Below, in pieces: positions 1-39,574 of a stretch of DNA of 39,574 nt. The notes below the pieces were generated by a model. That model was not told the origin of the DNA. It made no database searches and was given only the letters and a program-made list of their open reading frames with translations. A program made the translations under genes and the position numbers. Location: the NCBI GenBank assembly GCA_008632985.1, contig QPGO01000068.1, forward strand, positions 378,570-418,143, read 5' to 3'. The stretch is from Psammoneis japonica. Its lineage: Eukaryota. Position 1 is the first letter of the stretch. Each line of letters opens with the position of its first letter.

Positions 1-1695
1 GCAACTGCTAAAAAGCAAAAAGATCCCGACATGCCTTCTTTGCACGAGGCCATGCGCAGCGATGAATCCGAAGAGTGGGTTGAGGCCATGAAAATTGAAA
101 TTGACGCGCTGCTCCACCGACGTGCATGGGAAATGGTGCCAAGAACGGCAGATGTGAATGTGCTACCCGGCACATGGGCTTTCAAACTCAAACGACTCCC
201 GGATGGTGCGCCCTTGAAGTGCAAGGCACGACATTGCGTTCGCGGCGATTTGCAGAAACACGGGATCGATTTTTTCGAGACCTGCACGCCGGCAGTGCAA
301 TGGTCGTCCATGCGCCTTCTCCTCACCACGGCACTCAAGGAAGGTTGGACTGCACGTCAAGTGGACCACACTACAGCCTTCTGCCAAGCTGATGTCAAGG
401 AGAAGGTCTGTGCAGAGCCTCCCAAGGGTTTCCAGCCAAAATTGGGCGCCGATCTGGCACCAAAATTGTTGAAAGGCCCACACGGCCTGCGCCAGTCTCC
501 CAAGTGCTTCTGTGAAAAGCTGAGGGACGGATTGCTCGAAAGAGGATGGATTCAATCCGCCATTGACCCTTGTCTTTATTTCAAAAAGGGCATGTCATGT
601 GTGGCACATGTTGATGATGCCATGTTCGCCGGCGCATCGGCCCAAGCCTTGGAAGCAGAGATTGCCAAGTTGGGCATTTCCAACGATGAGCAACGCCATG
701 TCTTTGATCTACGTGATGAAGGCGAAGTCGGTAACTTTCTGGGTGTCAAGATTCAAAAGCTCGAAGACGGCCGATTCCTCCTGACCCAACCCGGCCTGAT
801 TGAGAAAGTTCTCCGCACCGCACAGATGACTGAGTGCAACGGCGCACCCACTCCTGCCTTGCCCGCTCCTGCTGGCAGCGACACCGACGGGCCACCGTTC
901 GACGAGCCTCATGACTGCCGTTCCATGGTCGGCATGCTGATGCATCTAGCGTCCAACAGCCGCCCGGACATTGCTCACGCGACCCATCAAGTCGCGCGGT
1001 TCTCCTGCGTACCCAAGGCCTCCCACGCTGTGGCTGTCAAGCGCATTCTTCGTTGCCTGAAGGATGCGGCCGACAAAGGACTTATCCTAACTCCAACCGC
1101 CGATCAACGACTCGACTGCCATGTTGATGCTGATTTCGCGGGACTCTTCAGTGTTGAAGATGGACAAGATCCCACGTCTGTCAAGTCACGTGCGGGACAT
1201 GTCATTTATTATGCTGGATGTCTGATTGTCTGGGTGTCCAAGTTACAGACCCTCATCGCACTCTCTACCATGGAAGCCGAGTGTGTCGCCCTCTCCCAAG
1301 CGATGCGTGATCTCATCCCCCTTCGCGAGATCGTGAAGGAAATCAACGCGCTCGTTTTCGGACAGCCGGACAGACAGACCGATATTTCGACACATTCGAA
1401 GGCTTTCCGACACGCCAACGACGGAACTGAGGATTCTCCCATTGACTCTACTAACCTCCCAGCATCCGTTGTGTACGAAGATAATGCTGCCTGCCTCCAA
1501 TTCGCCCGCATGCCAAAATTATCCCCACGAACCAAGCACATCGGCATTCCCTGCCATTGGTTTCGTACTAAAGTTGAGGCTTTGGAGATCAAAATTGAGC
1601 CTGTGAGCTCAGCTGCACAGCTTGCTGACCAGTTTACTAAAGGATTGACTGTTGATCTATTCCGCACTGGTCGCAAAGCCCTCATGGGCTGGTGA
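1..1695 (+). pseudogene. pol: Copia pol (RT + RNase H), open frame but missense-hypermutated
   Basis: Frame open from base 1 to TGA at 1693-1695, ending LMGW. Conserved Tyr replaced by Cys/His: KCKARHC, ETCTP, DHTTAF, AHVDD, CHVDADF, EAECVAL. Confidence 0.88.
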
Positions 1696-1722
1696 CTGAT
1701 GGTTCTCCTTCTCTTTTCGGTT

Positions 1723-1731
1723 GAGAGGGAG
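1723..1731 (+). other. Polypurine tract of Copia 1
   Basis: GAGAGGGAG about 28 nt after the pol stop. Confidence 0.75.
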
Positions 1732-1996
1732 AGTCACGAGTCAACAACCGAGTCTGATTCACGGATGACGCTTCCGGTCATGGATCTCTTCTTCCGGAAG
1801 AAATGTCCGTTGAGTCTTCTAGCGACAGTAATCGGAGTGACACACACGACCGTCAGGTCACAATGTCATCTCCAATCCCTCGTGAGATCTTCTCACAGTT
1901 CGCATCTTTGGCGCATCTCATTGTCCCAAAACTGCTTCTTGTCATCCTCTGTTGTGTTGCACAACCTCAAGAGAGTCCTGAACTCTCCATCCTACA
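1732..1996 (+). repeat. Putative 3' LTR of Copia 1 (AGTCAC...CCTACA)
   Basis: Starts directly after the PPT. Right end inferred from CTACA and by analogy to the Copia 2 LTR end; partner LTR is outside the window. Confidence 0.55.
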
Positions 1997-1999
1997 CAG

Positions 2000-2690
2000 T
2001 GCATTGTTGTGTCCCAAGTGGAGGCAGCAGAAGGCAGAGCATGGCTCGACGCAAACTCACCAAGGGCGGCGATTGAGTCATTCACACCAACAGTCGCAGG
2101 TCTGGAACTGGTCGTAGATGAGGGTGCAGGCTGTGGGTTCTGCGGGGTGGGGCATGAGAGAGAACTCCTTCCAATCCTTGTAGTTCCACATCATGTTGGG
2201 ATCAACGTCAATGTGGTGTGCAGAGATGACAACGCACATGATTTGATCGTGGTTCCGGAGATTGGTCTTGATGATCGACGAGAGAGATGTGGGCGTCATG
2301 CGGATCACACGAGGCCTGGTGGAGTCAACAATGTGGAACGCAGCTTCATCCACAATCGTCTTGACAGGCTGCATGTCCGCAGGATGAACCGTGCAAGGTG
2401 GGAACGCTGTGTTGACGAGGTGATCTCAAAATGTGTCAACAAAATCTTTCTTCGGTTGAGTGTGTTCTGGATCATCAAAGAACGGGTCCAGATCAAACAT
2501 TGAATGCGCGTGTGTCTTGTTCAAAGTTGCACGGAAATGAGGTGTTGTTGCATGTTCTTGAAATTCACAATGGATCTCTGCAATGGACATTGGAGCGGCC
2601 TTTGCAAGGTCAGGAGACGCCATGGTTTCACTTGGTGAGGGCATTTTTGGTCATGCACACGTGGAAATCTGGCATGTTTCTATGATCGTG
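2000..2690 (-). pseudogene. Degenerate ORF of unknown function
   Basis: ORF pieces 2426-2644 and 2078-2374 are in one frame and continue past TGA stops (probable CGA->TGA); protein-like sequence, no family recognised. Confidence 0.3.
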
Positions 2691-2999
2691 AAACATGCTG
2701 GGAAAGCAAGAAAAAAAATGTCATTGGAACAGATGATGAGGCTTGCTTGGTCGGCTCACAAAACAAATGAATCGAGACAGAAAGCTTGGCGCAGAGTTCT
2801 GTGGCACAGCGCAAGGCCACAACCTGACAGAATGCCGAAGGTCAATGATGACAGAGGCGTGAAAGACTCCCCAAGCACTGGGACTGTGACAACACCAGTG
2901 CTGGCAGATGAGAAAGTGAGAGGCAGATCTCAGAGAGATCTGCTCGTCCATCTAAATGGTCCGGTCATCATCCGCATGTAGTCTGTCCATCGTGCGACA

Positions 3000-3550
3000 G
3001 GCAGACTGACAGTGCCAGTTGTGGTCACTCCTGACCCTGTCAACAAGATCATGCCAGAGCTTGGAGAGTTCTGGGCAGGACTCCATGGAGACATCATTGG
3101 GGTCACAGAATTCTGTGCACAAGCTCTGCAGCAGGATTGTCAGGTGACAAATGCATTGGCCATTGCCAGCAAAAAACAGCAGGAAAGAGGCAATTTTGTG
3201 GACACATGAAACATGAACTCATCCATGTGCTTGCACTGCATCGTTTCCAGTTTGCCCAGGCACTTTTTAAGATGCTGACGAAAATGCCCAGCCCATTTTT
3301 GTTCTCATCATGAGTGGGTAAAACAAAAAGGCTTTGGTTTAACAGGGAAGAGCATGAAACAATTTTGCAGAAAAGCCAAACGCAAAAATGTGCGCACCCA
3401 ACATGTTGATGTGGTGCATTGATCAAAAAACATTCACACCACAGTCCAGTGGTGCAAGGTCCAACCTGGAGCTGGACACAGTGTTGATGGGGAGCTGCAA
3501 AGATGGCCTTGTCATTGCAGAACAGGTCTTGCACAGTTTCAAGGCAATTG
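3000..3550 (-). pseudogene. Decayed member of an unidentified gene family, related to 12200-13950
   Basis: Shares CACAGAATTCTGTG..CAAGCTCTGCA, AAAGAGGCAATTTTG and AACTCATCCATG with 13105-13212; peptides QNCLF, AEL.HRIL, IFAAP. Confidence 0.35.
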
Positions 3551-6500
3551 CTGAAGACATTGCTGCTGGAAATCCACAGTTAGAGTCAAGCCATGTGGAA
3601 GTGTCTTCATGGAGCACGTTTGAAAAATTCCAAGCCTTGGCAGGGCTGTTGACAGTGCAGCTGACACAGCACAAATTGGTGCCCAGCCACTGGACACAAG
3701 CCTTGACAAAATTCAGATGAATGATGGCAGGGACAATGGCGGTCATTTGGTGGACAATGTCAGGGATGACAGTGGTGGAGATGAGCAGCCAGAGAACATT
3801 GACATCAACTGCAAAACAAACAGTGATGACACCAGGGGGGGAGCACAGGCAAACTTTGTGGCTTGAAGATCCATGCGCTGCTTGATGAGAACAACAAGAC
3901 AGATTTTCCACAAACTCAGCAGTTTGCTGGTTGATTCTTCCATGCATTTGACTTGAGCCACACACCCTCATCTTTTGATCCAGGAATCAAGAATGTGCTG
4001 AAGCTGGCGATGCAGTGCCCAGTGATCACACAGGCAACAATTGAGTTGAACAAGGGTTGCTGGGAGGGAATGATCAATTTTCTTACATTGCATCATGTGG
4101 CACAACAGTTCTTGAGAACATTCTGGATCATTTTTGTTGCAGCTGGGAGCAGTGCAGCACAGACATGTCTGAATGTGCCCTCTTCAAGCAAAGGAGAAAG
4201 GAGGTGACAACATTGCAGTGGTCCATGATGTGGCTCTTGCTTGCAAATCCTCAGTTGAGAGGAGCAGGCTGGCCCCTCACTGGAGCAGTGCTTCAAGGCT
4301 GTTGAAAACATGCAACTTTGGGAAAACTCAAGGAGTGCATTGGTGTCTCAAATGTGCATGTGCTGGGGCAAAAAGAAAAAGCACCAAGGGTGGCTTGAAT
4401 CTGTGGTTGTGCACAGTTGTGCACCTGGCACATCCAGCAACTTGCAACAGAAAATGTGGGTGGCCTTTGGACCTCATGGTGTTGGCAGGAAGGCCGGCCA
4501 TTTTCTGTCAGTCCTTGTGACACACTGCTTTCACATGAACACTGACATCAACGTCAAGTGCAAGGATTCACTGAGCTCAGATTCAAGCACTGCAGCTGCT
4601 CAGATTTGACCTGTCTCCACAACACATTGGCCAAAATTGCTGTTGCAGCTGGCTCACTGAGCTGCAATTCAAACATGACACCCTCTTTCTGGCTCAGCAC
4701 ATGAAGTTCTTGAGAGAGCTGCTGCTGCACACTGCCCACCTGTGGAAGATGATGTGCTTGTTTGACAAACTCATGAGCGACAATCCACCAAAACCTGCAA
4801 CAGAAACATGGAAAGATTTGACAGCACTGCTTGAGAAGAAGTCAGAGGATGCACAGCCATTTTTTCAAAGTTTCTGTCCACACTTTGTTGATGCCATCAC
4901 AGCTAGAAAGCAACACAGGACTTTGTCACAAGTGAGGATGCTGCTGCAAAGGCAGGCTGCCACAGCCTTTTGAAAAATCTTGTTCAGCCATCTCACAAAA
5001 ATGAGAGTGCCACAGCTTCATGACCATTTCAAGAAAGAACAAGCAGCAGTTTCACCAAACCTGATGATGATGACTTTGGCACAACTGCAACAAAGGTGGC
5101 TTTTACCGGCAATGTGCTCCAGAACCTGGTGTGCTGTTGCCACCACTGGCAGCAGTGGAATGGACTGAGAAAGCAGTCAGCAGCAATGGATGTTTGAGAA
5201 GCAAGGATTGTTGCTCTGTGGTGCCACCTGAACAGCGCCCCCATCTGGCAAGATGTTGTGCTCACAGATGATGGCAAAACTGCAAGCTGGTAAAAAGCAA
5301 TGGTGCTCACACTGGTGCCCATGACTCTGAAGAGAAATGAGAGCAAGTGCTTGTCACAGCGTGCGAACAACAATGCAAAGAAAGGATGAAAAGAGGGCAA
5401 CAAAAATGGCAAGGCAGCAGAGCAGCAACAGCAAGCAGATTGATGCCAGTGCAGGCTTGACTGCATTCACATTTGGCACCAACTTCACACATGACAAGCG
5501 CTCCTGCATTTTCAGAGCAGGAGCAATTTGGCTGCAAGTTGCAGCTTGCTGTTGCACAACAGCTGTCACCTGGTGTGCAAACACCATGGTGGCACACCAT
5601 GTGTGCTCACCATGAGACACTGCATTGCCAGGAGGAAGCAATTTTGTATGACAAAAATTTTGTCATGACAAAAAGCGGGAAAGCAGCTCAATGTTGCAGC
5701 ATGCTTTTGCTTTTTGCACCATTGTTGCATCTGGTGTCTCCCTGTGCTAGGTTGATGGATCTTCCGATGCTGACATTGGGCTTTTGTGCTGTGCAACCAT
5801 CAAAAATGGTGTTCTCCACCACGTCTCTGTGCACAGACATGTCCGGAGGCAAGTGGCGCCACTTTTCGACTGACATGATCTTTCCAGACGTTTGCCTTGT
5901 GTGGGATGTAACGACCAGCGTCATGGTGCGACTTCAAGCATGTTTGTTTCGAGCGGCGACTCCATGATTCGTGATTCTCGTCAAGGTCACTGAGCAAAAA
6001 AGATCCAACATAACGATCAGCTCAAGACAAGCTTTGCTCCTTCTCTACAATCGAATATTACACGCTAGAAGATGAAACTGTAATTTTAAACTCTCTAAGA
6101 AAAGTTCAAATAAGAAAATGTAACAACACGTACGAGTAGTAGCGTACAAGTAACAGCTGCGACCCAACCACTGCTATTTGTAAGAGGAGTCGCTGTATCC
6201 AAGCTGCCAAGGTAAATGAGGTAACAAACATACAATACAAACATGCTCAACGAGTCTGTGAAGCTCTTTGTCTGGAACTTGCATGGAAGATTCCAGAATG
6301 TTTGTCTTGAGACGCAACCGTTTTTGGGACGTTTTTCATCCTCTCTTCGTCAGGCCGTTTTCGACCTACGCATCCCATTCAGCATTGTCCCCGTTGTCTC
6401 GGTTCGTGAAAGACGTGGAAGCGTACGCTACCCACGTCGTGCAGCAGGACCCGTACCATCCGCCAAGACGTCTCTTGTTGCACCGTTGCCTCCTTTACAC

Positions 6501-6561
6501 CTTTGCTTCTCCCAGGGCGACCGGCTTAAAGAGCTCTGGGGTCCAACAATGCCTCTTGCAG

Positions 6562-9500
6562 TCATCTCCTGAAAAAATTGACCCTTCTCCTCCTCGGGCG
6601 AGGTCGGAACGTCGGACGTGGCGGCGGCGGATCGGGATCCAACCGGCATTCTCCATCCTTGTTGAAAGCCTTAAAGGCGTCTCTCAGCGAAGCATAGTTT
6701 TGGTCGTTTCGGCTGTTAAACGCGTCAACAAAGGCATCAATTATCTCGTTCTTCTCTAATGGGTAATCAACGTCACTGTTCGCCGCATTCAAAAGTGCAG
6801 CCACTGTCTGCTTCCCGAGACCCCGCTTGGTCGTTCCTCCTTGTGCCAACACCTTTTGTAGTGTTTTTCTTCCATAGGCCTTGATGCCAACCACGTCCCT
6901 GAACAAGTCGCCTGGATTGTACGGGTCCCCCCACTGGCCAGTGTTCTTCTTCCAGAATCGTACACTGCAACCTTCTTCCAGCTCATCGGTCCCATCGCTA
7001 TACGATGTCATGTCCGAATCTTCAGCATCTAGATCCAATCCGTTTTCCGTGTACTCTGCTGTAACGGTAGCGGTGGTTTCATACCTACCAGTACCTGCGG
7101 TGCCGCTTTCAGCGTATCGCCAAACTTCGTCAAGGTCAAGCTTTCCGTCAGAGTTTACGTCTCCTTCTTCCACCATCAGAAATCTATCGAGCGTACTATC
7201 ATACACTTGAACATTGGAGAGGGGAACGTTGCCTTTGTTTGTGACAGTGTAGTTAAACACAACTGTTTCTCCTGGTGTGATTGTCAAGCCATCATCGTTG
7301 TTTGCTGTAACGTCGATTTTAACAGCCGACGCGATGCCAAAGAAATCGTCGGATATCGTTGCTCTCCAGTTTTTCCTTCTAGCCCTGCCTCTGGCTCTCA
7401 AATTGACTGTGTTATCGCCAGCTTTAGCCACCTTTTCGACACGGTAGATCCACGTCTCATTTAAATCGAGTCGGTTGTTATTATTCGAGTCGCCGCTCTC
7501 ATAAAAGACTGGAGCATTGGAAGTTTCTCGTACTCGAACAAGTCTTAGACGACGATCTCCCGTGTTGGACACATTGTATCTCAGCACCATGGGCTTGTTT
7601 TCCTCTACCACAGATGGCGTAGGGTTTTCTGCAGAAGCAACCAATTCAATGAACGTTGTTGGCTCAGGCGGCGGCGGCTCGATAGTGGGAACAGAGGGCG
7701 ACGTCGATGGAGCAAAGGAAGGAATTTCTGAGGGTACTGCACTTGGTAGACGACTTGGAGTTTCCGAGAGCGAAACAGATGGTATACTACTTGGCACATT
7801 AGATGGCAATGCCGATGGCAATGCGCTGTCCTCTCCAGTTGGCGTTACGCTTGGGACCGCTGAAGGGGCTTCTGATGGGGCCGCACTGGGTGCCGCCGAT
7901 GGTTTCGACGATGGTGCATTGCTAGGAACCGATGAAGGGGCAAAGAACGGTGCCATCGACGGTTCATTGCTCGACGAAGGGGCCAATGATGGTACTGTGC
8001 TTGGTAAGCTAGATGGTGGTACCGATGTAGACGGTGCATTGGTTGGAGCCAAGGAAGGAGCTGATGATGGTGCTGCGGAAGGTACATTGGACGGTGTCCC
8101 CGATGGCACTGAGCTAGCTTCTTCAGACGGTGCGTTACTTGGAACCGCTGAAGGGAGTCTTGAAGGCGCAGCACTGGACACAGCCGAAGATTTTGACGAT
8201 GGTGCAGTGCTAGGAGCCGTTGATGGCGCTGCGCTGTCTCCTCCAGTTGGTGTTACGCTTGGAACCGCTGAAATGTCGTCTGATGGGACCGCACTAGGCA
8301 CAGCCGACGGTCTCGACGATGGTGCATTGCTAGGAGCTGATGAGGGAGCAAAGAAGGGTGCCATAGACGGTTCATTGCTAGAAGAAGGGGCCAATGATGG
8401 TACTGTGCTTGGTAAGCTAGATGGTGGCGCCGATGTAGACGGTGAATTGGTTGGATACAGAGAAGGAGCTGATGATGGTGCTGCGGAAGGTACATTGGAC
8501 GGTGTCCCCGATGGCACTGAGCTAGCTTCTTCAGACGGCGTGTTACTGGGAACCGCTGAAGGGATTGTTGAAGGTACTACACTGGACACAGCCGAAGGTT
8601 TCGACGATGGTGTATTGCTTGGAGCCGTTGATGGCGCTGCACTGTCTCCTCCAGTTGGCGGTACGCTTGGAACCGCTGAAGTGGCGTCTGATGGTACAGC
8701 CGATGGTTTCGACGATGGTGCATCGCTAGGAGCCGTTGATGGCGCTGCACCGTCTCCTCCAGTTGGCGTTTCGCTTGGAACCGCTGAAGGTGCCTCTGAT
8801 GGTACCGCACTAGGCACAGCCGACGGTTTCCACGATGGTGCATTGCTAGGAGCTGATGAGGGAGCAAAGAACGGCGCCATAGACGGTTCATTGCTTGAGG
8901 AAGGGGCAATGATGGTGCAGCGCTCGGTAAGCTAGATGGTGGCGCCGATGTAGACGGTGAATTGCTCGGAACCAAAGAAGGAGCTGATGATGGTACCTCA
9001 GACGGAATATAAGACGGTGTCCCCGATGGTACTGAACTGTCTTCTTCAGACGGTGTAGTGCTTGGAACCACTGAAGGGAATTTAGACGGTACGGCACTGG
9101 ACCCAGATGGTGTCGCGCTAGGTGAGTTGCTGGGAGACCCACTCGGAACAGCGCTTGACGACTCGTCTGTCGGCTCGTTGCTCGGTACTGTGCTGGGTAT
9201 ATCAGATGGCTTCGCCGACAGCGCCTCGCTGGGTGCCGAACTGGGTACAGCGGACGGGCTTGTTGAAGGCACCGTAGACGGTTTCGCAGAAGGGGCATCA
9301 CCTGACTGGGCTGATGGACTAGCCGACGGCATATCACTGGGCGCCGAACTGGGCACAGCTGACGGGCTTGTTGTCGGCACCGTAGATGGTTGCAGCGAGG
9401 GCACATCACTGGGTTGAGCTGATGGACTAGTAGACGGCACAGCACTGGTTGGCGCAATCAGGACTTCCGAAGGCTGACTCGATGGCGCCAAGGATGGAGT

Positions 9501-9917
9501 TGACGAAGGCATGGAGCTTGGCGTACTGCTCGGAAACATGGACGGAAAATCGGAAGGTACCGCACTCGGCACTCCTGATGGCATGGCGCTAGGCGTTGTA
9601 CTCGGCGTGCCACTTGGAATGTCGGATGGGCTTGTCGAGGTGCCCACTGAAGGAGAGCTGCTCGGCATGCCCGACGGAGCACTGCTTGGTAAGGTGGAAG
9701 GCATCATTGATGGAGCCGACGAAGGCATGCCACTCGGGACATGCGACGGAGTCGACACGCTGCTCGGCATTGTCGAGGGAACATCACTTGGCGTTCCCGA
9801 TGGTGCCCCAGAAGGGAGAACGCTGGGCATCGTTGAAGGCACGTCACTTGGTTCATCAGTCTGACTTGAACCTGTGCACAGCAGAGCAAGGCATAAGCTC
9901 ACCCTTACAAGCCTCAT
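6562..9917 (-). CDS. Secreted Pro/Ser-rich (PSxxPS) repeat surface protein with two DUF11/DUF7507-like repeats and a C-terminal GCxxxFWK..AALLNA domain; 1-bp frameshift near 8907 (about 1118 aa if repaired)
   Basis: ATG at 9917 with signal-peptide-like MRLVRVSLCLALLCTGSS. ORFs 8577-9950 and 6562-8880 join if one C is restored. Two Y.V.N.G...L..V.V....GD.N..G/N.LDL.E.W.Y repeats. Normal TA and CG content. Confidence 0.8.
7843..9080. repeat. Intragenic tandem repeat, 408-bp (136-aa) unit, about 3 copies
   Basis: Equivalent positions at 7843, 8251, 8659; GGTACTGTGC at 7991 and 8399; peptide EPSMAPFFAPSS recurs three times. Confidence 0.85.
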
Positions 9918-27240: not shown

Positions 27241-27252
27241 GAGCTCACAACC
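27241..27252 (-). other. Primer-binding site of Copia 2 (internal tRNA-iMet type)
   Basis: Minus strand GGTTGTGAGCTC beside the 5' LTR resembles the Copia half-tRNA-iMet PBS GGTTATGRGCCC after TA->TG. Confidence 0.6.
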
Positions 27253-27799: not shown

Positions 27800-27963
27800 G
27801 TCCCCGCGAAACGGCAGTGACAACGCCGATTCGTCTAAACCTAGAACATCCTCTCATAGAGAGGTAAACACAAAACCCAAATTCAGACCACCAGCAATGC
27901 TGGCTTGGGAGGCCAAAAACACGTGGGCGCAAGCCGCAGGTGTCTGGCCTTGGTGTCGGGGCT

Positions 27964-30900
27964 CTACCAAAAGATGCAAGAGCAAAGTTTCCAACGCCGC
28001 TCTCCCGTCGTCACCTTCGTAAACAAATCCGCCAAATTCGTGTCCGTGTCCTCCTTCCCGATGCGAACAATGCCAGCCGCAACCGCTTCACGAACCAAAT
28101 GACAGTTGATGGCATTGTGCTTCTTGTGCAACACAGATTCCAGAATGCTGACGTTCTTCACCACGCCGCGGTTGTCGCAAAATACATTGGCAGGGCCTTC
28201 AATCGGTGCTCCAAACATACGAAGTTTGTAACGCAAAGCAACAATCAACTCCTTGCAAATGCGCATCGCAACCAATTCGCTGCCAAACGTCGCCGACTCC
28301 ACTGTGTTCTGCCGCTTGCTAAACCAAATGATCGGAGCATTGTTCACGAATGTCAAAATCCCGCCATGCGATCTGCGAGTGACAACGTTTCCCGCATGGT
28401 TAGCGTCAACAAATGCAGACACATTTGCCGGGTTGCCACGGGGCTTGGGCATCCGTGGCGGCAACTCCTCCTCAACGTCCCCATAAAACTCCGTCCAGTC
28501 CGCAGTAGAATTGAAAACAGATTCGTCAATCACAGGCATCTTCGGGTCAAAACCAATGCGACCGACATTCAAATGCTTCTTCATGTGCGCGAACACGTGG
28601 TGCAATGCTTCGAGGTGCCCTTTCCTTGGGTTGGCTTGACACTGAGAGAGAATGGAAACTTCATGCAAGACATCGACACGGCCCAACTCGATCGCCCAAC
28701 GACAAATGCCAATCAACTGCAAATGCCTGTCCACCAAATCGGGTCCCAACTCGTCCGTCACGTCTAATTCTGGCTTGCACTTAGAAGGCAGTGGGTCCCT
28801 CACATTGTTCTTCAAGACTGCTCCGTCACCGTCCTCTTCTAACAGCCCTTCCACCGTCTTGATCGCCGACTTGACACACGACTTCGGTGAGCTTGCCCAA
28901 ATGGCACGCCCATCTTTGGTCTGAACCTTCTCGACGTCGGCTCCAAGGCACAACGATGGCTCTCCTTCACTCGCAGGTTTGACAGCAAATGATTCACCCG
29001 TGCTCTCGACAATGGATTTTCCTTGATGAGAAATGATTAGAATGTCGTCAACACAAACCAAAAGCATTTCATAATGCTCACGCCCATCGTCGCGAGTTGC
29101 CGCACGAATGTGAACGTCGGGATCCGCCTTCGTTGATTCAAAACCCATGTTCCGTAAAACCGATGCCAATGCGGACCTCCAAGAGTGTCCAGAGCTCTTC
29201 AAACCGCACAGCGCTCGAGTCACCACTAGAACCTTGCCTTGGCACTCTCCACATTCCCTGCCACCTTCGAACCAGATCTTCTCCGCACACGGGGCATTCA
29301 AGTGCGTGTTCTCCAGGTCGACAGCCGTGATGTCCACTCCATTCAATGCTGCCAGCAGGAATCCTAACCGTGCGCTATCCCTCGAAACAACACTTGAGCA
29401 TGTGATCGATGATGGTGTTTCCGCAGCATGACCTCCTGCAACAAATCTGGCCTTCCCAGTGAAATCCATCTTTACGTCGAACACCAAATGGCACCTGATC
29501 TCCTGACAACCACGTAAAGTTGCACTCTTGCCTTCCCGGACGACTTGAGGGGTTTCAGCTTCATGTTCGCGCCACGCTGTCTTGACCTTGTTCATCTCCT
29601 TGTTGATTGCGCGAGCCCAACAGTCCGTCCCCGTTTCCTGGTCAATCTTCAAAGCATCTTCCGTAGACTTGGGTAAACGTGTGCCGAACTTGTGGGCAGT
29701 GCGCCAATGTTTCTTCTCAACCTTCGAGATGATGCAATTCCGCTTGCGCAAAACATGTGTGACACACCAAGCAAACGCTGGTTCTTCGGTTAACCTGTTC
29801 GCTGCAGCATGCTCAGCAAGTTCAATTGGGTTAGACTCCTTCAGATCCTTGAGTTTCACCCACGACGAGCTGCCGTCCTTCCATGCGACCAATGGGTTCC
29901 ATCCTTTCGCAGTTATCTTCTTATGTTCGTTCCCGTCAGCTGTCTGAACTGTTCCTTCCTGGATCGGCATGGCTTCGCCGGTCTTTTCGTGATCCTGCAT
30001 CTCCTGTAAAATAGAATGCTGGTTGCCTTCGCTGTCAACTTGAGCAAACACATTCTCCGCGATCACATTGGCAGTGCACTTGTCTCTGGTGCCGTCTGTG
30101 CATTCAATCTCACATTCGCGGGTGTCAAACATTGGATTCTGATGCCGGGTTCCAATCGGTCGCCCATCCTGACCTCGTGCCCGCTTGACTGCGACTCCTC
30201 GCCGTTCAGCGTTAGTCCCAACATCAAACATAAGTTCCATTCCGAGACATTGATCAATTGCCTGTTCGTCGTCGTCCTCGGGTCGTTCTCCTGGCAACAA
30301 CATGTCCCCGTGTTCCTCATCGGTTGGTGTCACACCGCCTTCATGTTCCACGCCGGGGTTGCCGTCGATCGCCAAATCATCCAATGCAAATGCTGGTGCC
30401 GCTTCGTCGCCTTGTAAAACGAAATTGGTGTCATCTAACCGTGCCTCCAGTTGTTCGTTAAACTTGTCGACTTTCACACGAATGTCCGGCTGCACCATGT
30501 CGGCCTGCGTTACATGCTCGACCGAAGTCTTCGAAACTGTCTTCCCGGATTCCGTGATGATCCAATGACACATGTCCGATCCGACCTTGTGAGACATGCC
30601 AAGCCATCGTCCAAGCCTCCTCGGGTCATCTGTTGCATTCGGCTTGTCGTGTCTGTCCCACCACCAGACCAGATCATAGAAACCGAAGTCCAAATGCTTG
30701 CCTGTTTCGGGTGTCTGACCAGTTGCCTCTTCACACCCAGTCCGTTTGTCGCGGCCTCTTGCCATGCGAGATACAAGTTCCGATTCATAAACTAGACCAA
30801 AATCCCACAATCGTTTCGGCACCTTCTTCCTTGTCATCCGCAGGCGCCAACGCTTGGCCAAGAACCCGATCTCTCTTTCTGCTGCGTGATTCTGATTCTT

Positions 30901-32295
30901 ACGACCTTGTTCCGTTGTCCTGAGTTGGATCCTCATTCGACGTGCGTGTTTCACAAACTCGGCACTTCGTCCTGTGAACTCTCCAGCACCATCCGATGTG
31001 AGATGCTCCGGCACTCCCACATCGTCTGTAAAGTCAACGAGAGACAAACCTGCCTCCGACCTTGCGGTCATTGGCACAACCTTTACGAACTTGCCCTGAG
31101 TGCAAACATTGGCACAAGTGTTGCCGAGCAAAGACTTCACCTTGGACATTAACGTGTCCACAAACCATGTCCCTTTTAATCTTTTCTGATGCAGGTCCAA
31201 GTGATCCACCCCAACTCTCCTTGACATTGGTTGGGTCGCCGTCCGCACACCGCGCTGTGCAGTTACATTGAGAGTGTCCTTAGCCGTTTCCAAGCCGACG
31301 CTCCACTTTCGTGCTAGCTCTTCAGCGTCGATCTTGGAGTGACGGTCCTCACTGCGCAATTCCTCAACCGCTCTTGCTCTTTCGTCTGCGTCTGACCCAC
31401 ACGCACAAGCCACGTTGACTGAACTGATGAGCCTGTCACAAAAGGATTGAAGATGATAGACTGGAGACAATCGAGTGAGTTCAGCTTCAACCTCGCCCCA
31501 TTGGACTGCTTGAGACTTGGCCCTGTCGCTCTTCATTTCTGAAATCTGTTCCTGTCTCATGCCAGATGTCATCGAACGGACAGTGCGCATCTCAGATTGC
31601 TCCCTTGTACGCTGTGGTGAACCCATGTCGACTTCCGTTGGACTCCATGCGTCTCCTGTCAGCAGCATCACTGGCAAGTTCTTCTCCTCCCAATCCGTCG
31701 GAACACGAGACTTGAAAGATGCAATTGTCCCCATGGAATTGAAAGGTGTGAAAGCTTCATCAGCTTCGACTCCAAACCCATTTCGAGTGTCGCAAGGGTT
31801 GTCGTGTACGGGTGTGTCACACGCTCGCAACTGATTGGGGTTCAACAATGAATGCTGCATGTCAGTTCCAAACCACAGCATTTGGTCTCCAACCAGCAAG
31901 TGCTCGCGAGTCGTTTCCGGATCCGTCCACACTGTGCAACAACGCGCCACAGGAATCTGTTTAACCGGCTCATACGAATCTAGAAACGGGTGCACTTCAC
32001 AGACTTTGTTCGTCAATTCCACAAGTTTCCAGTTAGCGCCAGCACAACAAGCACCCGCATGAGTGTCACATTCGTTCCTCGCCATGAAGCCGGGTGTCGT
32101 TAAGTTCGTCATCGCGGTGGCAGTCGTTGACCTTGTCACACGTTTCGAAGTCAAAGCAACGCGCCTTTTCGTTACCTTCTCTTGCAAATGAAATGTTGGG
32201 TGGGGTTTAGTTGACAACATGATGAGCAACATGAACACAAATGACATGTGCACCAAACACGCCAATGCTCCCGTAGTTGAAACCACCCCGATCAG
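27964..32295 (-). pseudogene. pol: pol of Copia 3 (protease, integrase, chromo-like domain, RT, RNase H); uninterrupted but hypermutated
   Basis: 1440-aa ORF: DTHAG (protease DTHAD-like), FVDT/SDGAGEF/AEREI (DDE integrase), KARFVAGGH, LVCVDD, VDANHAG, FCDN, ADLFTK. Only about 7 Tyr remain. Confidence 0.9.
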
Positions 32296-33819
32296 TCAAA
32301 CATGACCTTGACAGGCCCCTCGACCGAAAGCGCGCCCATTCCTGCCACCACGATCACGGTCAGCTCCGCGACCGCGGCCACCGTTTTCACCTTGCGCTTG
32401 ACCTTGCTGCCCTTGACCTTGACGGTCTTGAACCTGAGCTTCGGCTGCTTGCCTGTTGCCTCCGTCGCGTCCGCCTCTTCCTGCAGGGTTTCCTCGACCA
32501 CCGCGTCCGTGCATCCTTTCACGAGCTTGAAAAACATAATTGAGACCTCCGTTAAAGCGCAATCTGTCCCATTCCTGGTCGGCAAATGTCCTCGTAGGAT
32601 CCGACACATCGACTCCGTTAATCACAGTTGTGCGATCACCACCCCTTCCTTGATGTCCTCCGCGTCCTCCACCGCGGCCAAATCTGCCGCCACGCCCACG
32701 ACCGCCGCGATGGAAACCTCGGCCACCACCGCCACCTCGGCTGATCTGAGAAATCTTGCGCTTTGTGCAATGCCGGGCTTCCAACTGAGCACCTGCATGT
32801 AAACGAGAGACTTCGGATGAGAAATGAGCACACGCCCCCGCGAAGTCACGAGGGTGCTGGTTGCCAATGACGGCCGTAGCCGCCACAAGACGGGCATCCT
32901 CCGATTTGACACCCTTCTGTGACATTTCAACCTTCTGCCGAGCAGACATGCTTTCATCCGGAACCTCATCCAAAGTGGCAAAGGCACTGGTGAGTTTCTC
33001 CGTGAATTTCTCAAACGTAAGTGCACCTTCCTTTTTGTAGAGTGACGTTTCAACATTGGCCTTGGCCAAATGAACTCGCTTGCTCAATTCGCCTTCGCCA
33101 TTGCAATGGTTGACCCAGGCCCAGAATGCTTCGCGTCCATTATCTGTTGCATCGTATGGCTCAATCCAAGCCCAACCAGCCGCATCAATCAAATGCTCTT
33201 TTAACATGCGACACACGCGACGATCATCCACATCAAACGCGTCTCCGGCGAGCGGCAACTGATGCATGCGCTCCTCCTGATTGTCCGCGAACTCCGCCGG
33301 TGCAGGCATCCTCCTCGCGACATGTTTCAACGGCTCCTTAAGTGCACCAAGCTTCTGCGCCAACAAGTTCAAGAAAGCGTCTTCACACACGTCAAAATCT
33401 TCCGCTTTGAATTTGGTGAGGCTGTCAACCATCGCAGTGGATTCCGTAAACTCCTTTTCAATGCGCCTGCCGTCCCCAGCCGCCGCCACAGCTGCAATGT
33501 TAAAATTCGCCACGACCAGTGGCTGGTTCCGTTTCGTTAAATCTCTCAACCACCAAACCAACGCCTGCAAGTTCTTAATCTGTGTCATCCCTGGCGTCAC
33601 GCGTCCATCGGCTGCTGTACGATGAGCCGCCCTTTGGGCTAGATCCTCAACATCATGGTCCGTTTCCATGACAGCAACATTCTCAAGAGCAGCAAACCCT
33701 TCATAGAAAACAAGCCTCGCCCCAGCGTGTTGGTCAACAACACCACAAACCTGCAATGCCGTGTCTACGTCAGCCGCCGCGGCCAAAGCCGCAAGTGCCA
33801 CTGCTGGTGCCGCTGCCAT
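32296..33819 (-). CDS. gag: Gag of Copia 3 with RGG-rich C-terminus (no CCHC knuckle seen); hypermutated
   Basis: Long ORF upstream of and in frame with pol; likely start MAAAPAVALA at 33819; GRGGRG-rich tail. Confidence 0.8.
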   Translation of the reverse strand: MAAAPAVALAALAAAADVDTALQVCGVVDQHAGARLVFYEGFAALENVAVMETDHDVEDLAQRAAHRTAADGRVTPGMTQIKNLQALVWWLRDLTKRNQPLVVANFNIAAVAAAGDGRRIEKEFTESTAMVDSLTKFKAEDFDVCEDAFLNLLAQKLGALKEPLKHVARRMPAPAEFADNQEERMHQLPLAGDAFDVDDRRVCRMLKEHLIDAAGWAWIEPYDATDNGREAFWAWVNHCNGEGELSKRVHLAKANVETSLYKKEGALTFEKFTEKLTSAFATLDEVPDESMSARQKVEMSQKGVKSEDARLVAATAVIGNQHPRDFAGACAHFSSEVSRLHAGAQLEARHCTKRKISQISRGGGGGRGFHRGGRGRGGRFGRGGGRGGHQGRGGDRTTVINGVDVSDPTRTFADQEWDRLRFNGGLNYVFQARERMHGRGGRGNPAGRGGRDGGNRQAAEAQVQDRQGQGQQGQAQGENGGRGRGADRDRGGRNGRAFGRGACQGHV

Positions 33820-34253
33820 CCCATGACAAGAGAAATGGAGGCAATGACCCATGCAATGGGTCACAATTTGGTGTGAGTGCGCATGGCATAGGAGGCCACA
33901 CCGACCGGTGCCGTGATGGCGGGTTCACATAGCCAACCGACTTTGGGGTGATCAATCCAGTGTCGTTTCCATCGTGAGCACACGCTTGGGCATGCTGCCC
34001 AACACCGCAGTCGTTCCACACCCGTTAACAACATGGAGATGGTGACCACTTTGCGAGTGTTTTCCGTTGCAAGCTGTTTCCTTTGGTCGTCACACGCGAC
34101 ACAGAGCACACGCTGCACGCGACAACCCCCTTTCGATGCCACGCGTACGAATCAGTACATTTTCTACAGCTGCTCGTTCCATGCACACAATCACAACAAT
34201 CAACCGTTTGCAACGAGTTGTTTCCTTGTCCGTTTCGTTCAGCTTTTCATCAA

Positions 34254-34264
34254 TGGCTCTGACA
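34254..34264 (-). other. PBS-like site of Copia 3 (tRNA-iMet 3' end)
   Basis: Minus strand TGTCAGAGCCA equals TATCAGAGCCA after TA->TG, but is preceded by CTT rather than TGG. Confidence 0.55.
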
Positions 34265-34267
34265 AAG

Positions 34268-34449
34268 CGAATGAATGCCGATGTGGCCGCGTGGGGCAAT
34301 GACAGCACCTCAAGCCTAAGAGCAGCAGTGACAAACCAAAGAGAACCCTGTGTCGATTAGATCGTGTGAGATTGTGGGAAAGAACAAACCACCAGATCGT
34401 GCGCATCAGCCCCGGACCAGGGACTGACCGCTCCACCCAGATTTGCTCG
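34268..34449 (-). repeat. 5' LTR (182-bp shared repeat) of Copia 3
   Basis: Ungapped match to 27618-27799. Confidence 0.92.
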
Positions 34450-36689
34450 CTGCATCACAGATCAGAGCTGGAAGTCTTGTTGCTGGAATGAGCCAACAGA
34501 TGCAACCAACATGGAAGCTGTGTGTCAATTGCTTTCAACATTGGAGACTGCATGCAATCTAAAACACAAATTACATCCCAAGTTGTCTGCGCCAATGGAG
34601 CACGTGTTTTGTGTGTGACATTGAATTCTTGCATGCTTTCCCAGTCTTTGCACCACAACGATGCTTTTGGCATCCTCAACAATGTCCTCCTCAGTCTCAC
34701 CTTCACCCAAAATGCTGAGACAATCTTTGTCAACAACCCCAGAAAAAAGAACAACACCCTTGTTGATGTCCTTGTGCTGGCAGGATGAGACCTTGCATTT
34801 TCTGTTGACAGGGGGGGTTTGCTTGGAAGAAGTCATCTCATTGTGCCCACCTCAAAAAGTCCTCCCAAACCATCATCACAGCCACAATTCCTTCATTGTT
34901 TGTCAACAAAGCAGCAGTTGATGAGGTTGACATCCTTTTTGTGCCAGTGGTGGGACACAACCTTGTGTTTTTTGTCTGGGGTGGTGGCCTTGCTTCAAAG
35001 TGCTTGGCAGATTTTTGTGTGAGTCGTCACTTTGCTGGCAACCCACCAACAATTTGAATGGAACTTGCTTTGTTCAAGAAATCTTGCTCTGACGCAGGTG
35101 ACAACATCATCCACAACATGAGATTTTGCTGTTCTGGATCAGTTGTCTGGTGTTGCTCTCCATTCAAACCTGGAGCCACAAGACAGAAAGCTGTCTTCAG
35201 TGGCTCAAGAAGCACTGTGCTGCAGTCCATGAGGAGCGCCTGAGTCTGCCAAGGGAGCCAGTGGCAACAACAAGAGCAAGCACACCCACACTGAATGACG
35301 TGCAGTGTGTTTGCTGCAACATGCCTTGGTGTGGCCTGTGACATTGCAGCAGTTGATGCCTGCTGAGCAAATGAATCAAAAATGAAATGAGTGTCAACCA
35401 CATTGGCAGAAAAATGATGGCAACCAATGTGCTCTCAAGAAGGTTGCTCCAATTGAGGAGTGATGGCACACCTGACAACTGATCACACTCATCTCTGGTC
35501 TGTGGCCTGCAGATGGAGAAATGCTTTGGCATCACATTGGCACAATGAATGAGTGTGTTTTTGTGTGTGTCTTTGCCACATTTGCAACAGCCACAAATTC
35601 AAAATCTTGTGAGCTGACATGAAATGCAACGCCACTCCACACAGCATCATGCCATCCATCCATCTGTCCATCCAACCAGTTTTGCCATCAGCAAGGCATG
35701 TGCGGGGCACCAACAACCATTGCAGACATGGACAAAAAGATCAAGGATTCTTGCAAAACACTTTTCTGACTTCCAGCTGTTGTTTTGCATTTGGCAGTCA
35801 CTTGTTGTTCCCCTGTTGACTGAGATGGAGACTTGGTTGCCTGTTGCTGCTCTTGTTGTCTTGCCAAGTCAAGTTGATTGATGGTTTCCAACTCAACAGC
35901 TTGGTCTTTGCATCCCTTTCTTGCTCTGTCTCCAAGCACTCTGTGGCTGTTCTCTGCCACCTGCAAAACCAAGGCAAGCAACTTGGCATCTGACAGCCCA
36001 CCAAATCTGTGCTGTGTGCTGTTCATGCACACCTTTTTGACAACATCCCATTGCTCCATTGGCTCTGTTTTGTTCCCACATTGTCGCACTTTCTCTGTGC
36101 ACAAGTTTGTGCCCCACAAAACTCCCTCACATGTTTTCTCTTTGACAACAAATGCGTTGGGGGCAAACAACATTGCACTGTCAAATGTGTGACACCCTGC
36201 CATGTTGGCTTGGGCATTGTTTTCTTTGCCTTGTTCCAACAGCCAACCTGCATCTGTGCTGTTGCCACTGTCAATTTTGCCCAATGACAAGCCCTGTTTG
36301 TGTTGAGGCAAGCATGCATTTGCCCCAAAGACTCGACAAACAGTTGGCACACAAAGTGACAACAAACTTGCGCACCAACTCATTGTTGCCTTGACCCCTT
36401 TCCAGCTTGCCACAAACACTGCTTTGCAGCAGAGCACCGCTTCTTCCTCACAATGTCTGCTCTTGGTTTTTCCAAGAAACTTGCCGTGCCCTTTGTCAAC
36501 AAGCAACATCTGCTGCAGCAGCTCTCAAGCATGCCGCTGAATTCTTGCTGCTCTCTTGACTTCTCTTTTGTGGCAATGGCTGTGCCACATCCACATGACT
36601 TTGCACTTGGCTTGGGGCTGTCGGCGCAAGCATGCCCCAAAGCCTCCCATGACACCTGCTCCATGTCTGATGCCCAGCGTTTTTGCAAG

Positions 36690-37927
36690 TCTGCCAAGCT
36701 TGCCAAACTTGCCAAGCTTGTCAAACTCACCAAACTTGCCAAACTCAAAAACCCGCTAAACTTGAAAAACTCATCAAACTCGCCAAACCTGCCAAACTTG
36801 CCAAACTTGCCAAACTCGCCAAACTTGCCAAACTCACCAAACCCACCAAACTTGAAAAACTCATCAAACTCACCAAACCCGCCAAACTCACCAAACTTGC
36901 CGAACTTGCCAAACCCACCAAATTGGCCAAAATTGCCAAACTTGTCAAACCCGCCAAACTTGCCAAACTTGCCAAACCTGCCAAACTTGCCAAACTCACC
37001 AAACCCACCAAACTCGCCAAACTTGCCAAACTTGCCAAACCTGCCAAACCTGCCAAACTTGCCAAACCTGCCAAACCTGCCAAACCCGCCAAACTTGCCA
37101 AACTTGCCAAACCTGCCAAACTTGCCAAACCTGCCAAACTTGCCAAACTCACCAAACCCAACAAACTCGCCAAACTCACCAAACCTGCCAAACTCGTCAA
37201 ACCCGCCAAACTTGCCAAACTTGCCAAACCTGCCAAACTTGCCAAGCTCGCCAAACTTGCCAAACTTGCCAAATGTGCCAAACTTGCCAAACATGCCAAA
37301 CTTGCCAAACCTGCCAAACTTGCCAAACTCGCCAAACTTGCCAAACCTGCCAAACCTGCCAAACCCGCCAAACTTGCCAAACCTGCCAAACCCGCCAAAC
37401 TTGCCAAACTTGCCAAACCTGCCAAACTTGCCAAACTCACCAAACCCACCAAACTCGCCAAACTTTACAAACCTGCCAAACTTGCCAAACTTGCCAAACC
37501 CACCAAACTCACCAAACTTGAAAAACTTGGCAAACTTGCCAAATTTGTCAAACTTGGCAAACCCGCCAAACTCAAAAAACTTGCCAAACTTGCCAAGCTC
37601 AGCAAACTCAGCAAACTTGCCAAACTCACCAAACCCGCCAAACTTGCCAAACTCAGCAAACTTGCCAAACTTGCCAAACCTGCCAAACCAGCCAAACTTG
37701 GCAAAATTGCCAAACTTGCCAAACTCGCTGATCTTGCCAAACTTTGCAAAATCACCAAACTCACCAAACTTGCCAAACTTGCCAAACTCACCAAACTTGC
37801 CAAACTTGCCAAACTTGGGAAACTTGCCAAACTCACCAAACTTGGAAAGCTCATTGAACTTGCCAAATTTTTCAAACTTGGCAAACTCCCAAAACCCACC
37901 AAACTCAGCAAGCTCCCCGAACTTGGC
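36690..37927. repeat. 9-bp minisatellite, consensus TTGCCAAAC, about 135 units
   Basis: Units TTGCCAAAC, CTGCCAAAC, TCACCAAAC, TCGCCAAAC, CCGCCAAAC, CCACCAAAC in strict 9-nt phase. Confidence 0.95.
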
Positions 37928-37929
37928 AT

Positions 37930-38628
37930 TCTTGCACTTGCGAGGATCACTCTTGGACCACAAGCAGTGGAAGTCAGAAAACAGAAAGGTGCTCTGATGC
38001 TGTCACTCATCTTTTTATTTTGTGTGTGACTTTTCCTGCCAAGAAGCACATGCTGGCAAAACATCAAATTGCACTTGGGTGTGCAGTCACACGCAAAACA
38101 TTGAGCTGCATTTGGGGTCATGTGCAATCAAATCTTCCTGCACGTGTGCTCACATCACATGCAACAAAGAGCGTTTTTGGCAACACACAAATGTCTCAAC
38201 AAATGGGGAATGAGGCAGCAATGCCTCCCTTGTGAAAAACGTTTTTTGCACTTTTTCATGGATTTCTTGCACTTGCAGGAATCACCAAAAACCAAAACAT
38301 TCTGAAAAAGTTTTTCATGTGGGAAGTCTTGCCACCTCATTCACAATTTGTGTGGAAATTTACGTGTCGCCAAAAAAGCTCATCATTGCACATGACATGA
38401 ACACATGTGCAACAGGAGGAAGATTTGATTGTGCACAGCCCCAAATGCAGCTCAATGTTCCTTTTGCACATGGCCCTGAACAAAATTTGATGCTTTGCTG
38501 TTGTGTGCTTTTGTGGCGGAAAAGGCCACATCCAAACACAAGTGTGCACAAAAAGATCAATGGATTCTCACAGAACACTTTTCTGACTTCCACTTGTGGT
38601 TCAAGAGTTGTTCCTGCAAGTGCAAGAA
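37930..38628. repeat. Imperfect inverted repeat, arms ~37930-38220 and ~38330-38628
   Basis: ACATTGAGCTGCATTTGGGG..CAATCAAATCTTCCT vs AGGAAGATTTGATTG..CCCCAAATGCAGCTCAATGT; GTGGAAGTCAGAAAA vs TTTTCTGACTTCCAC; TTCTTGCACTTGC vs GCAAGTGCAAGAA. Confidence 0.8.
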
Positions 38629-39189
38629 ATCCTCTCTCTCTTGTGAAAAAGACATCTTTTGCAATGTGGCTTTGTGGAGCACAAGGTCAACAACTTCACC
38701 TCCAATCAGCACATGCCTTGCCCCAAAAATGAAGCAGCATGTCAAGAGCCAATGGATGTGAATGCCCTTGTTGTCTTGGACATGCTGAAAAGAACAACAT
38801 TTGAGGACAAGTTTGTGGACAAAGAAGACAATCATGCATGCTCTCCTTGCAGACTGTGGGATGACAAAAGCAGGAAAAAAGCAGAACAGAAAGGGAGCCA
38901 AAATTCAAAATTTGATTTGTGGTGCATGGCACACTGTGCAGTTTGCAAGTTGCCAAAAGACAATGACCTGACAACTCCAAAACAGAGCCTTGTGGATCTG
39001 AGGAAACTTGGCACCACCCAAAAGCCCAGCACTTCATGTTGTGATGCAAAGATTTGCAATGCACAGTGCTCTTTTTGTGATGACTGCAAGAAAGTGGTGT
39101 TGATGCAAGCAATTGGGGATGGAGCAACATGCACACCAGTTTGCATTTGGCAACAGAGCATTTTGTTGATTTTCAGCTGGCACTGGAGC

Positions 39190-39574
39190 ATTGTTTAGAG
39201 GCATCTTTGTCCATGGTGTGGATGGTGGTGTTGGTGTTGAGCACCCATGTGCCCCAAATCAGGTCATGATCATTGTCAGGAAGTTGCTTCTCTTGCCCAA
39301 TCCTCTCACCTTTGGACCTGCACAGAAATGGATTTTCCAAACCATGCCACCTGCCAACATTTCAAATTGTGACAATGTTGGCATCACAGCAATGAGCCCA
39401 CTGTGCTGCAGATCTTCTGATGGAATGACTGGAGCACACACCAAGACCAGCAGCCTCAAACAACTTCTTCAACTGTCTCACAAATGTTGAAGACCCAACC
39501 TTGCTTGCTGTTGGGCACATCAACTTGTGACCACAAAGCTCCCAATGCTTCATCAACCAGTGGATGGGGCAAAC
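39190..39574 (-). pseudogene. Tyrosine recombinase C-terminal remnant (Crypton/DIRS-like); truncated by window edge
   Basis: LKKLFEAAGLGVCSSHSIRRSAAQWA...I*NVGRWHGLENPFLCRSKG: HxxR box, GRW, and the expected catalytic Tyr position reads TGC (39320-39322). Confidence 0.7.

Follow-up and report, generated by a model that had tools for sequence, protein, structure and literature searches.

Probable TpA-erasing hypermutation of Copia retrotransposons and neighbouring silent DNA in a contig of probable diatom origin

A stretch of 39,574 nucleotides from contig QPGO01000068.1 (assembly GCA_008632985.1), referred to as the window in this study, carries three Copia retrotransposons, named here Copia 1, Copia 2 and Copia 3, together with a host gene, decayed unique DNA and a satellite. 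The dinucleotide TpA is strongly depleted in all of them except the gene and its immediate flanks. Very probably, a process acting after integration converts TpA into TpG or CpA, on either strand, throughout a silent domain and up to the active gene, and this process appears to be of the same kind as one seen in the chlorarachniophyte Bigelowiella natans. The observations that carry this conclusion are the dinucleotide composition of the window, the differences between the paired long terminal repeats (LTRs) of Copia 3, and the loss of tyrosine codons from the retrotransposon proteins.

Depletion of TpA and its traces in the Copia elements

Observed/expected (o/e) dinucleotide ratios were computed for each region of the window. 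A total of 364 TA dinucleotides were counted in the whole window, which gives a TpA o/e of 0.143, with CA at 1.57, TG at 1.74 and CG at 0.46. Depleted regions fall into two states. In the moderate state, found in the Copia 1 part (1-2100; TpA 0.25, CpG 0.89) and in Copia 3 (27618-34449; TpA 0.24, CpG 0.99), CpG is nearly intact. The deep state combines TpA of 0.019-0.057 with CpG of 0.11-0.21 and CA or TG of ~1.5-2.3, and comprises Copia 2 (21382-27609; TpA 0.046, CpG 0.15) and three unnamed stretches at 2500-5900 (TpA 0.057, CpG 0.21, CA/TG 1.88/1.89; 13 TA in 3401 bp), 10600-21380 (TpA 0.043, CpG 0.11; 32 TA in 10781 bp) and 34450-39574 (TpA 0.019, CpG 0.18; 7 TA in 5125 bp). Deep depletion thus spans ~25 kb at TpA o/e of 0.02-0.06. 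The CA/TG ratios in depleted DNA range from 1.3 to 2.3, and ApT stays at 0.8-0.9 in most depleted regions, with 0.63 in 34450-39574. An earlier reading of the window from its letters alone (the sequence-only reading) had remarked that many CpG were left; this is right for Copia 3, and does not hold as a general trait, as the oldest parts of the window are CpG-poor too.

The host gene region (6050-10200) displays a TpA o/e of 0.62 and a CpG o/e of 0.93. The edges of the TA-bearing island around it are abrupt, with the first TA at 6011-6046 and the last at 10595, and the island stands at 0.62 between flanks of 0.04-0.06; the neighbouring host sequence is therefore normal. The same limits, placed at about 6000 and 10560, had been given in the sequence-only reading, and the island at 6011-10595 bears them out. 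CpG behaves slightly differently at the left edge, where 5822-6011 contains 13 CG and one TA, and CpG recovers ~190 bp further out from the gene than TpA. The boundaries of CpG decay and TpA decay may not be exactly common to both.

The two LTRs of an element are identical when it inserts, and differences between them arise later. Those of Copia 3 (27618-27799 and 34268-34449) are identical at 164 of 182 positions without gaps. All 18 mismatches are transitions within pyrimidine-purine (YpR) steps, and none is found in the 92 columns outside such steps, in keeping with the enrichment of A>G changes in TpA context that the sequence-only reading expected. Sorted by dinucleotide class, the differing sites comprise six CA/TG, three TA/TG, one TA/CA, one CG/TG and one CG/CA, with 16 mismatch columns in TA-derived classes and two in CpG classes. 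The copies share ten CG and not a single TA. When 18 random transitions were simulated 5000 times, a mean of 8.9 could be explained in this manner (maximum 17), and CA/TG doubles arose at a mean of 0.3 (maximum 3). The TA changes therefore postdate the insertion of Copia 3, and the CA/TG alternatives are therefore traced to a TA ancestor struck once per copy, on opposite strands. A CpG ancestor of these doubles is very unlikely because only two of the 12 CpG sites changed.

The six doubles and four single changes yield, by simple arithmetic, an estimated loss of ~86% of some 16 ancestral TA in each LTR copy of Copia 3. No change was found among 184 site-copies outside YpR steps, which bounds the rate there indirectly. 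Set against two of 12 CpG, these values imply a decay rate for TpA that is ~20 times that of CpG and exceeds that of other sites at least ~100-fold. The older LTR pair of Copia 2 (21382-21736 and 27254-27609) is 82% identical. Its copies show 60 mismatches; transitions make up 47 of them, YpR classes account for 35, and 15 dinucleotides are CA/TG doubles. At one site of the Copia 3 LTRs, CACAAG in one copy faces TGTGAG in the other, and the putative ancestor is a TATAAG-like box; elsewhere AATAAA in one copy corresponds to AATGAA in the other. The process would thus strip promoter and poly(A) motifs as well.

The Copia 3 pol gene is an open frame of 1440 aa (27964-32286, minus strand) with 7 Tyr, 50 His and 41 Cys, matching the roughly seven Tyr and the unbroken frame reported earlier for this gene. 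Twelve of its relatives have 40-48 Tyr, 27-42 His and 13-20 Cys. The Tyr content of the 120 listed relatives has a median of 3.45% and a lowest value of 1.7%, against 0.49% in Copia 3 pol. Conserved columns were defined from the top 40 of the 120 listed relatives for Copia 3, and from 40 of 120 matches for Copia 1. Copia 3 keeps Tyr at six of 24 conserved Tyr columns and shows His at seven, Cys at ten and Phe at one (17 of 24 His or Cys), whereas conserved residues of other types changed at 75 of 650 columns. Copia 1 keeps two of 16 conserved Tyr, with six replaced by Cys, six by His and two by other residues (12 of 16 His or Cys). At the affected positions of both elements it is Tyr that the relatives keep, and a family consensus with Cys or His is not what was found. 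The conversions of YVDD to HVDD or CVDD and of EAEY to EAEC pointed out earlier were all located, namely HVDD (607-618) and EAEC (1273-1284) in Copia 1, and CVDD in both Copia 2 (22896-22907) and Copia 3 (29044-29055).

Related sequences from metagenomes place these losses in context. The TpA o/e of 79 related loci ranges from 0.26 to 0.92, with a median of ~0.69 as read off the sorted list, and is higher than that of Copia 3 in 78 of them. A metagenome contig of 1590 bp, L029, is 69% identical to Copia 3 in nucleotides, has a TpA o/e of 0.26, and 10 of its 12 conserved Tyr columns are occupied by His or Cys. In the metagenome protein P0141, a relative of Copia 3, the figure is 7 of 25. Judging from these two sequences, the process probably operates in organisms sampled by other datasets. 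In two further loci, L034 and L032, the CpG o/e is 0.03-0.06, yet TpA stands at 0.38-0.47, a mild loss, and most conserved Tyr are intact. Their order of decay would be the reverse of that in Copia 3, so that CpG may be lost first in some hosts.

At the codon level, 93 replacements were classified, the ancestral codon being chosen to favour a TA explanation: 22 are TA>TG, 17 TA>CA, nine CpG-type, nine other transitions and 16 transversions, and the rest are multiple changes. The 22 and 17 events on the two strands, together with the 18 of 18 LTR mismatches in YpR steps, support the targeted, strand-symmetric A:T>G:C mutator that the sequence-only reading had postulated. His outcomes (T>C on the sense strand) and Cys outcomes (A>G) are near equal. 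Strand-coordinated clustering, the hallmark of a processive single-strand deaminase, received no support from these events (17 runs against 20.2 +/- 3.0 expected, P = 0.19).

The flanking bases do matter. Among the Tyr codons of Copia 3 and L029, 19 of 20 with a 5' purine (RTAY) were mutated, against nine of 16 with a 5' pyrimidine (YTAY; Fisher P = 0.012), and the split between His and Cys is even in both flank classes (10/9 and 4/5). Of the TA that survive in the deep regions, 80% follow a pyrimidine, compared with 42% in 71 reference loci. These observations, drawn from a small sample, point to a putative recognition of the duplex TpA step and not of one strand. Single-strand rules of the form '+1 pyrimidine' or '-2 purine' were tried and rejected: the tally of all replacements is confounded by synonymous changes, and the Tyr-only tally has no strand preference.

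Under the genetic code, no sense codon becomes a stop through TA>TG/CA, and TAA and TAG are destroyed by it. A six-frame census of the window gave 1820 TGA, 223 TAA and 205 TAG, and 159 stop-to-stop frames of at least 90 aa are present in the 39.6 kb. Since the process is unable to create stops, the intact 1440-aa frame of Copia 3 is expected and says nothing on function. The absence of stops and frameshifts, which the sequence-only reading had held against ordinary decay, loses its force here, because the process itself predicts intact frames.

Targets and features of the window

The copy number of the targets was assessed from contigs of sequencing run X1, in which single-copy DNA has a k-mer depth of ~60-66. 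Contig depth reaches 1000-4500 over bins 1-3335 and 1293-4161 over 12674-14007, and is 66-103 over 3336-6003, 62-77 over 10006-12673 and 65-68 over 14008-15341. The stretches of single-copy depth equal the repeats in TA depletion, with the qualification that past copy number may have differed. One X1 contig of 3352 nt, at depth 66, spans 2947-6300 and departs from the window at 11 letters. A total of 403 differences were found between the assembly and the run contigs, of which 40 were listed; 18 of the listed ones lie in single-copy TA-free parts, and 14 of these are of YpR class, including two CA/TG doubles. This fits allelic or population variation from a still-recent process. Contigs of a second run, X2, cover 6061-10155 (bins 6004-10672 only, of the 20 kb compared), which says nothing on expression.

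Beyond the transposons, TA-free targets include DNA without a protein-family match, an FKBP relic, weak leucine-rich repeat (LRR) matches and a 9-bp satellite, and it appears that ordinary gene fragments caught in the domain are also mutated. As single-copy DNA is TA-free and the depletion ends at the gene island and not at element ends, the targeting is therefore putatively that of a chromatin domain. The depletion of elements, unique DNA, relic and satellite alike agrees with the suggestion in the sequence-only reading that transposons and neighbouring silent DNA are both affected. The name 'reverse RIP' (for repeat-induced point mutation) given there finds no support: single-copy stretches and the gene relic are equally depleted, and nothing in the window demonstrates repeat induction.

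All three elements belong to Ty1/Copia, as RVT_2 and a Y/H/C-VDD motif are present in each, and LTR pairs were found for Copia 2 and Copia 3. Copia 1 is a fragment on the plus strand with an RVT_2 open reading frame (ORF) at 1-1692 (Pfam E 5.5e-32). Copia 2, on the minus strand, is old and degenerate, and its RVT_2 match at 22960-23481 has an E of 3.6e-9. The younger Copia 3, also on the minus strand, has a gag-like ORF at 32299-33924 besides pol, which is 65% identical to its best relative and 50-65% identical to full-length relatives. Its gag-like and pol ORFs are in the same frame and are split by a single in-frame TGA at 32296-32298 (minus strand). This TGA could be an old TAA, a CGA after CpG decay, or a read-through stop. 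Some relatives of Copia 3 are gag-pol proteins of ~1900 aa. A gap of only 8 bp (27609-27618) separates Copia 3 from the Copia 2 LTR, so that insertions of very different age adjoin each other. CTGC borders Copia 3 on both sides and is a possible target-site duplication.

The spared island (6011-10595) consists of a PT-repeat gene on the minus strand with DUF11/DUF7507 at its C-terminus, and of TA-rich flanks. Its ORFs at 6562-8880 and 8577-9950 gave Pfam matches to PT, DUF11 and DUF7507, and internal repeats of 408 bp and 108 bp are present in 6562-9950. The two long ORFs overlap in different frames, so an intron or frameshift is to be expected near 8577-8880. The DUF11/DUF7507 fold otherwise occurs chiefly in surface proteins of bacteria and archaea, and an Atlas search with the C-terminal part of the protein gave bacterial DUF11/DUF7507 clusters only. 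Most named matches of the gene come from diatoms (Chaetoceros, Seminavis, Cylindrotheca, Amphora, Odontella, Proboscia), and a chrysophyte entry and a ciliate transcriptome entry were found as well. The species-named matches of two of the Copia families are all diatoms, four from Fragilaria crotonensis and one from Nitzschia inconspicua. No match to Bigelowiella was found among the homologues of the Copia families or of the PT-repeat gene.

The remaining stretches are poor in recognisable features. The TA-free, CpG-poor DNA at 2500-5900, at single-copy k-mer depth from ~3336 on, has no recognisable gene, and its ORFs gave no match in a Pfam search. The similar stretch at 10600-21380 contains weak gene relics on the plus strand. 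Its LRR matches (10749-11859) are weak and below their cut-offs, and its FKBP_C match (15749-16216) has an E of 1.2e-5 and 26 bits against a cut-off of 21.1. Only 36 residues of the FKBP piece could be aligned with solved FKBPs (E 0.003), too short for a usable Tyr test. In the TA-free DNA at 34450-39574, a tandem array at 36692-37887 is built from 133 copies of the 9-bp unit TGCCAAACT with 79% matches and is entirely TA-free. Overlapping ORFs of more than 500 aa are found on both strands of the array, one with a spurious collagen Pfam match. Such long overlapping ORFs in this stretch are by-products of the scarcity of TAA and TAG.

Candidate mechanism and rival explanations

The process very probably acts throughout a transcriptionally silent chromatin domain, where the satellite, a gene relic, decayed unique DNA and all three Copia elements are struck, and stops within ~100 bp of the active gene. 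The sequence shows it to be specific to TpA, strand-symmetric and subsequent to insertion, with RTAY struck more often than YTAY. Tyr codons, including that for the Tyr of the YVDD catalytic motif, are lost along with TAA and TAG, and the TATAAG-like box and the AATAAA-like signal appear to have been removed from the Copia 3 LTR. A role in genome defence is plausible.

As to the chemistry, TadA/ADAT enzymes are known to target a U-A step of tRNA. Our tentative candidate, to which we give somewhat less than an even chance, is a chromatin-directed ADAT2/TadA-type deaminase that turns adenine into inosine at duplex 5'-TA-3'. Inosine read as G would fit, and the authors of the B. natans study reached the same candidate, an ADAT2 homologue (bioRxiv 10.64898/2026.01.13.699255). 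A serious if unlikely alternative, which concerns the chemistry only and not the process, is a modified base, either 5-hydroxymethyluracil (5hmU) or 5-formyluracil (5fU) made by TET/JBP, or N6-methyladenine, set symmetrically at TpA, whose miscoding or deamination gives T>C or A>G. TpA and CpG losses occur in the same domains and both end as TG/CA, and the preference for RTAY over YTAY with equal His and Cys is easier to reconcile with recognition of a duplex palindrome than with a context read on a single strand. Against this, 5hmU pairs mostly with A. A precedent at transposons exists in dinoflagellates, where 5hmU marks and silences them and, in C. cohnii, preferentially replaces T in TA and TC according to the portion of the report used here (PMC11572971); however, the base-resolution 5hmU map of Breviolum, as described in its source, has no sequence motif (PMC11071213). 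A broader speculation, which we regard as improbable, is that duplex RTAY in silent chromatin carries a symmetric heritable mark, on A or T, whose decay erases TpA as the decay of 5-methylcytosine (5mC) erases CpG. It would then be a second system of the 'mutagenic epigenetic dinucleotide' type. This mark would be shared by diatoms and chlorarachniophytes, two distant SAR lineages, through one enzyme family, and would permanently disarm invading DNA at its promoters (TATA), at its poly(A) signals, and at its stop and Tyr codons.

Other explanations concern the process itself. A RIP-like trigger would sense duplication, and DNA that is now unique would have been repeated when mutated. The clearest targets are indeed multi-copy, at X1 depths of 1000-4500 and 1293-4161 against ~60-66, but 3336-6003, 10006-12673 and 14008-15341, at single-copy depth, and the FKBP relic are equally TA-free, the depletion boundary is a gene and not the ends of elements, and the hypermutated viral insert of B. 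natans is single-copy as reported (bioRxiv 10.64898/2026.01.13.699255), which together make such a trigger quite improbable. We hold it very unlikely that a modified base at TpA was simply misread during sequencing. Run X1 is possibly the assembly's own data, which leaves some room for this; nevertheless, contigs at ~60-66x k-mer depth reproduce the TA-free sequence, a strand-dependent miscall would also create CG whereas CpG o/e is 0.02-0.2 in these regions, and the same signature is found in the unrelated metagenome contig L029 and protein P0141. The B. natans work, moreover, is described as based on Illumina reads (bioRxiv 10.64898/2026.01.13.699255). Editing of retrotransposon transcripts by an ADAR-like A>I activity, copied into new insertions, would agree with the retroelements among the targets and with the 5' U that ADARs are reported to favour (bioRxiv 10.64898/2026.01.13.699255); it is nonetheless hardly credible, for the LTRs of a single insertion differ and the changes thus came after integration, both strands are equally affected (22 sense, 17 antisense), and DNA outside retroelements, including the satellite, is affected too. 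Equally little credence is due to the idea that the families are TA-poor by nature or that TA is selected against: TpA is mildly under-represented in most genomes, and the host gene itself stands at 0.62, yet nearly all related loci exceed Copia 3 in TpA o/e, the relatives of Copia 3 and Copia 1 keep their Tyr, and the Copia 3 LTRs diverged at TA sites.

Several points weigh against our conclusion that a TpA-erasing process acts after integration in a diatom host. The process is deduced from standing sequence, with no mutation observed as it arose. The codon tally is biased upward by the choice of the ancestral codon, and the RTAY preference rests on 36 Tyr codons of two elements. Run X1 may be the assembly's own sample and is then no independent proof against a platform artefact. 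The homology to diatoms comes from repeats and a low-complexity gene and is not a phylogeny. Finally, a mutation-accumulation study of the diatom Phaeodactylum tricornutum describes a GC>AT bias with CG, CC and TG as mutagenic contexts, and the part of that study drawn on here mentions no TpA effect.

Comparison with known systems

In fungal RIP, C>T changes, most of them at CpA, give rise to TpA and stop codons. RIP resembles the process considered here as a dinucleotide-specific transition hypermutation of transposons that leaves skewed dinucleotide indices and dead elements, but the direction is opposite, as A>G/T>C at TpA removes TpA and produces no stops. Deamination of 5mC at CpG occurs in the same domains and yields the same end products, TG and CA, and is the reason why the old parts of the window have lost CpG; it cannot remove TpA, and is ~20-fold slower here, with two of 12 CpG changed in the Copia 3 LTRs against ~86% of TpA per copy. 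The G>A changes by APOBEC3 and the A>G changes by ADAR are likewise context-specific editing that inactivates retroelements, and both are called deaminase-driven, as the chemistry here may be. These enzymes act on cDNA or RNA, on one strand and during replication, whereas the present changes are post-integration, lie on both strands and extend to non-element DNA. Dinoflagellate 5hmU is comparable as a silencing-linked modification of T with a reported TA/TC preference, and the portion of the report used here describes no mutational outcome (PMC11572971).

The closest system is that of B. natans, and the process in the window appears to be of the same kind as the de novo mutation observed there. 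In mutation-accumulation lines, 230 of 231 mutations in integrated giant-virus and virophage regions are reported to be A>G or T>C (Mettrop et al., bioRxiv 10.64898/2026.01.13.699255). The GC-biased mutations are all on TpA, at ~1000x the background rate, and 324 low-TpA coding sequences are enriched for reverse-transcriptase and DDE domains, as stated in the same preprint (bioRxiv 10.64898/2026.01.13.699255). Hypermutation of TpA to TpG/CpA is therefore already in print for this species as of 2026, contrary to the statement in the sequence-only reading that it knew of no described system. A literature search for TpA erasure in diatoms or in organisms other than B. natans returned no description, and the words 'diatom', 'CpG' and 'retrotransposon' are absent from the main text, the part of the preprint used here (bioRxiv 10.64898/2026.01.13.699255).

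If the host is a diatom, TpA-erasing hypermutation is not confined to one chlorarachniophyte and extends to a second group that is ecologically dominant and genetically manipulable, and such a group would make the responsible enzyme findable. The window also offers a ranking of rates, with TpA far above CpG and CpG far above other sites. For annotation, it carries a warning that TA-free DNA yields long spurious ORFs on both strands, which are liable to be mis-annotated as genes.

Both systems, as far as the preprint describes its own, are limited to TpA>TpG/CpA on both strands, strike foreign or silent regions and leave the genome normal elsewhere, and show a very large excess in rate; the single-copy target in B. 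natans parallels the single-copy stretches here. They differ in that B. natans is a rhizarian and the present host probably a diatom, that the viral regions there are still at a TpA rho of 0.45 while values here are 0.02-0.06 over tens of kb, and that mutations were seen de novo there and are deduced from standing sequence here. Features specific to the window are the before-and-after test given by the LTRs, the sharp boundary at the gene island, the parallel CpG decay and the RTAY preference. What is new relative to B. natans is thus a probable second lineage, the targeting of both LTR retrotransposons and unique silent DNA, an almost complete erasure of TpA, a boundary at a gene edge, the rate ranking against CpG, the preference for RTAY, and the consequence for stop codons.

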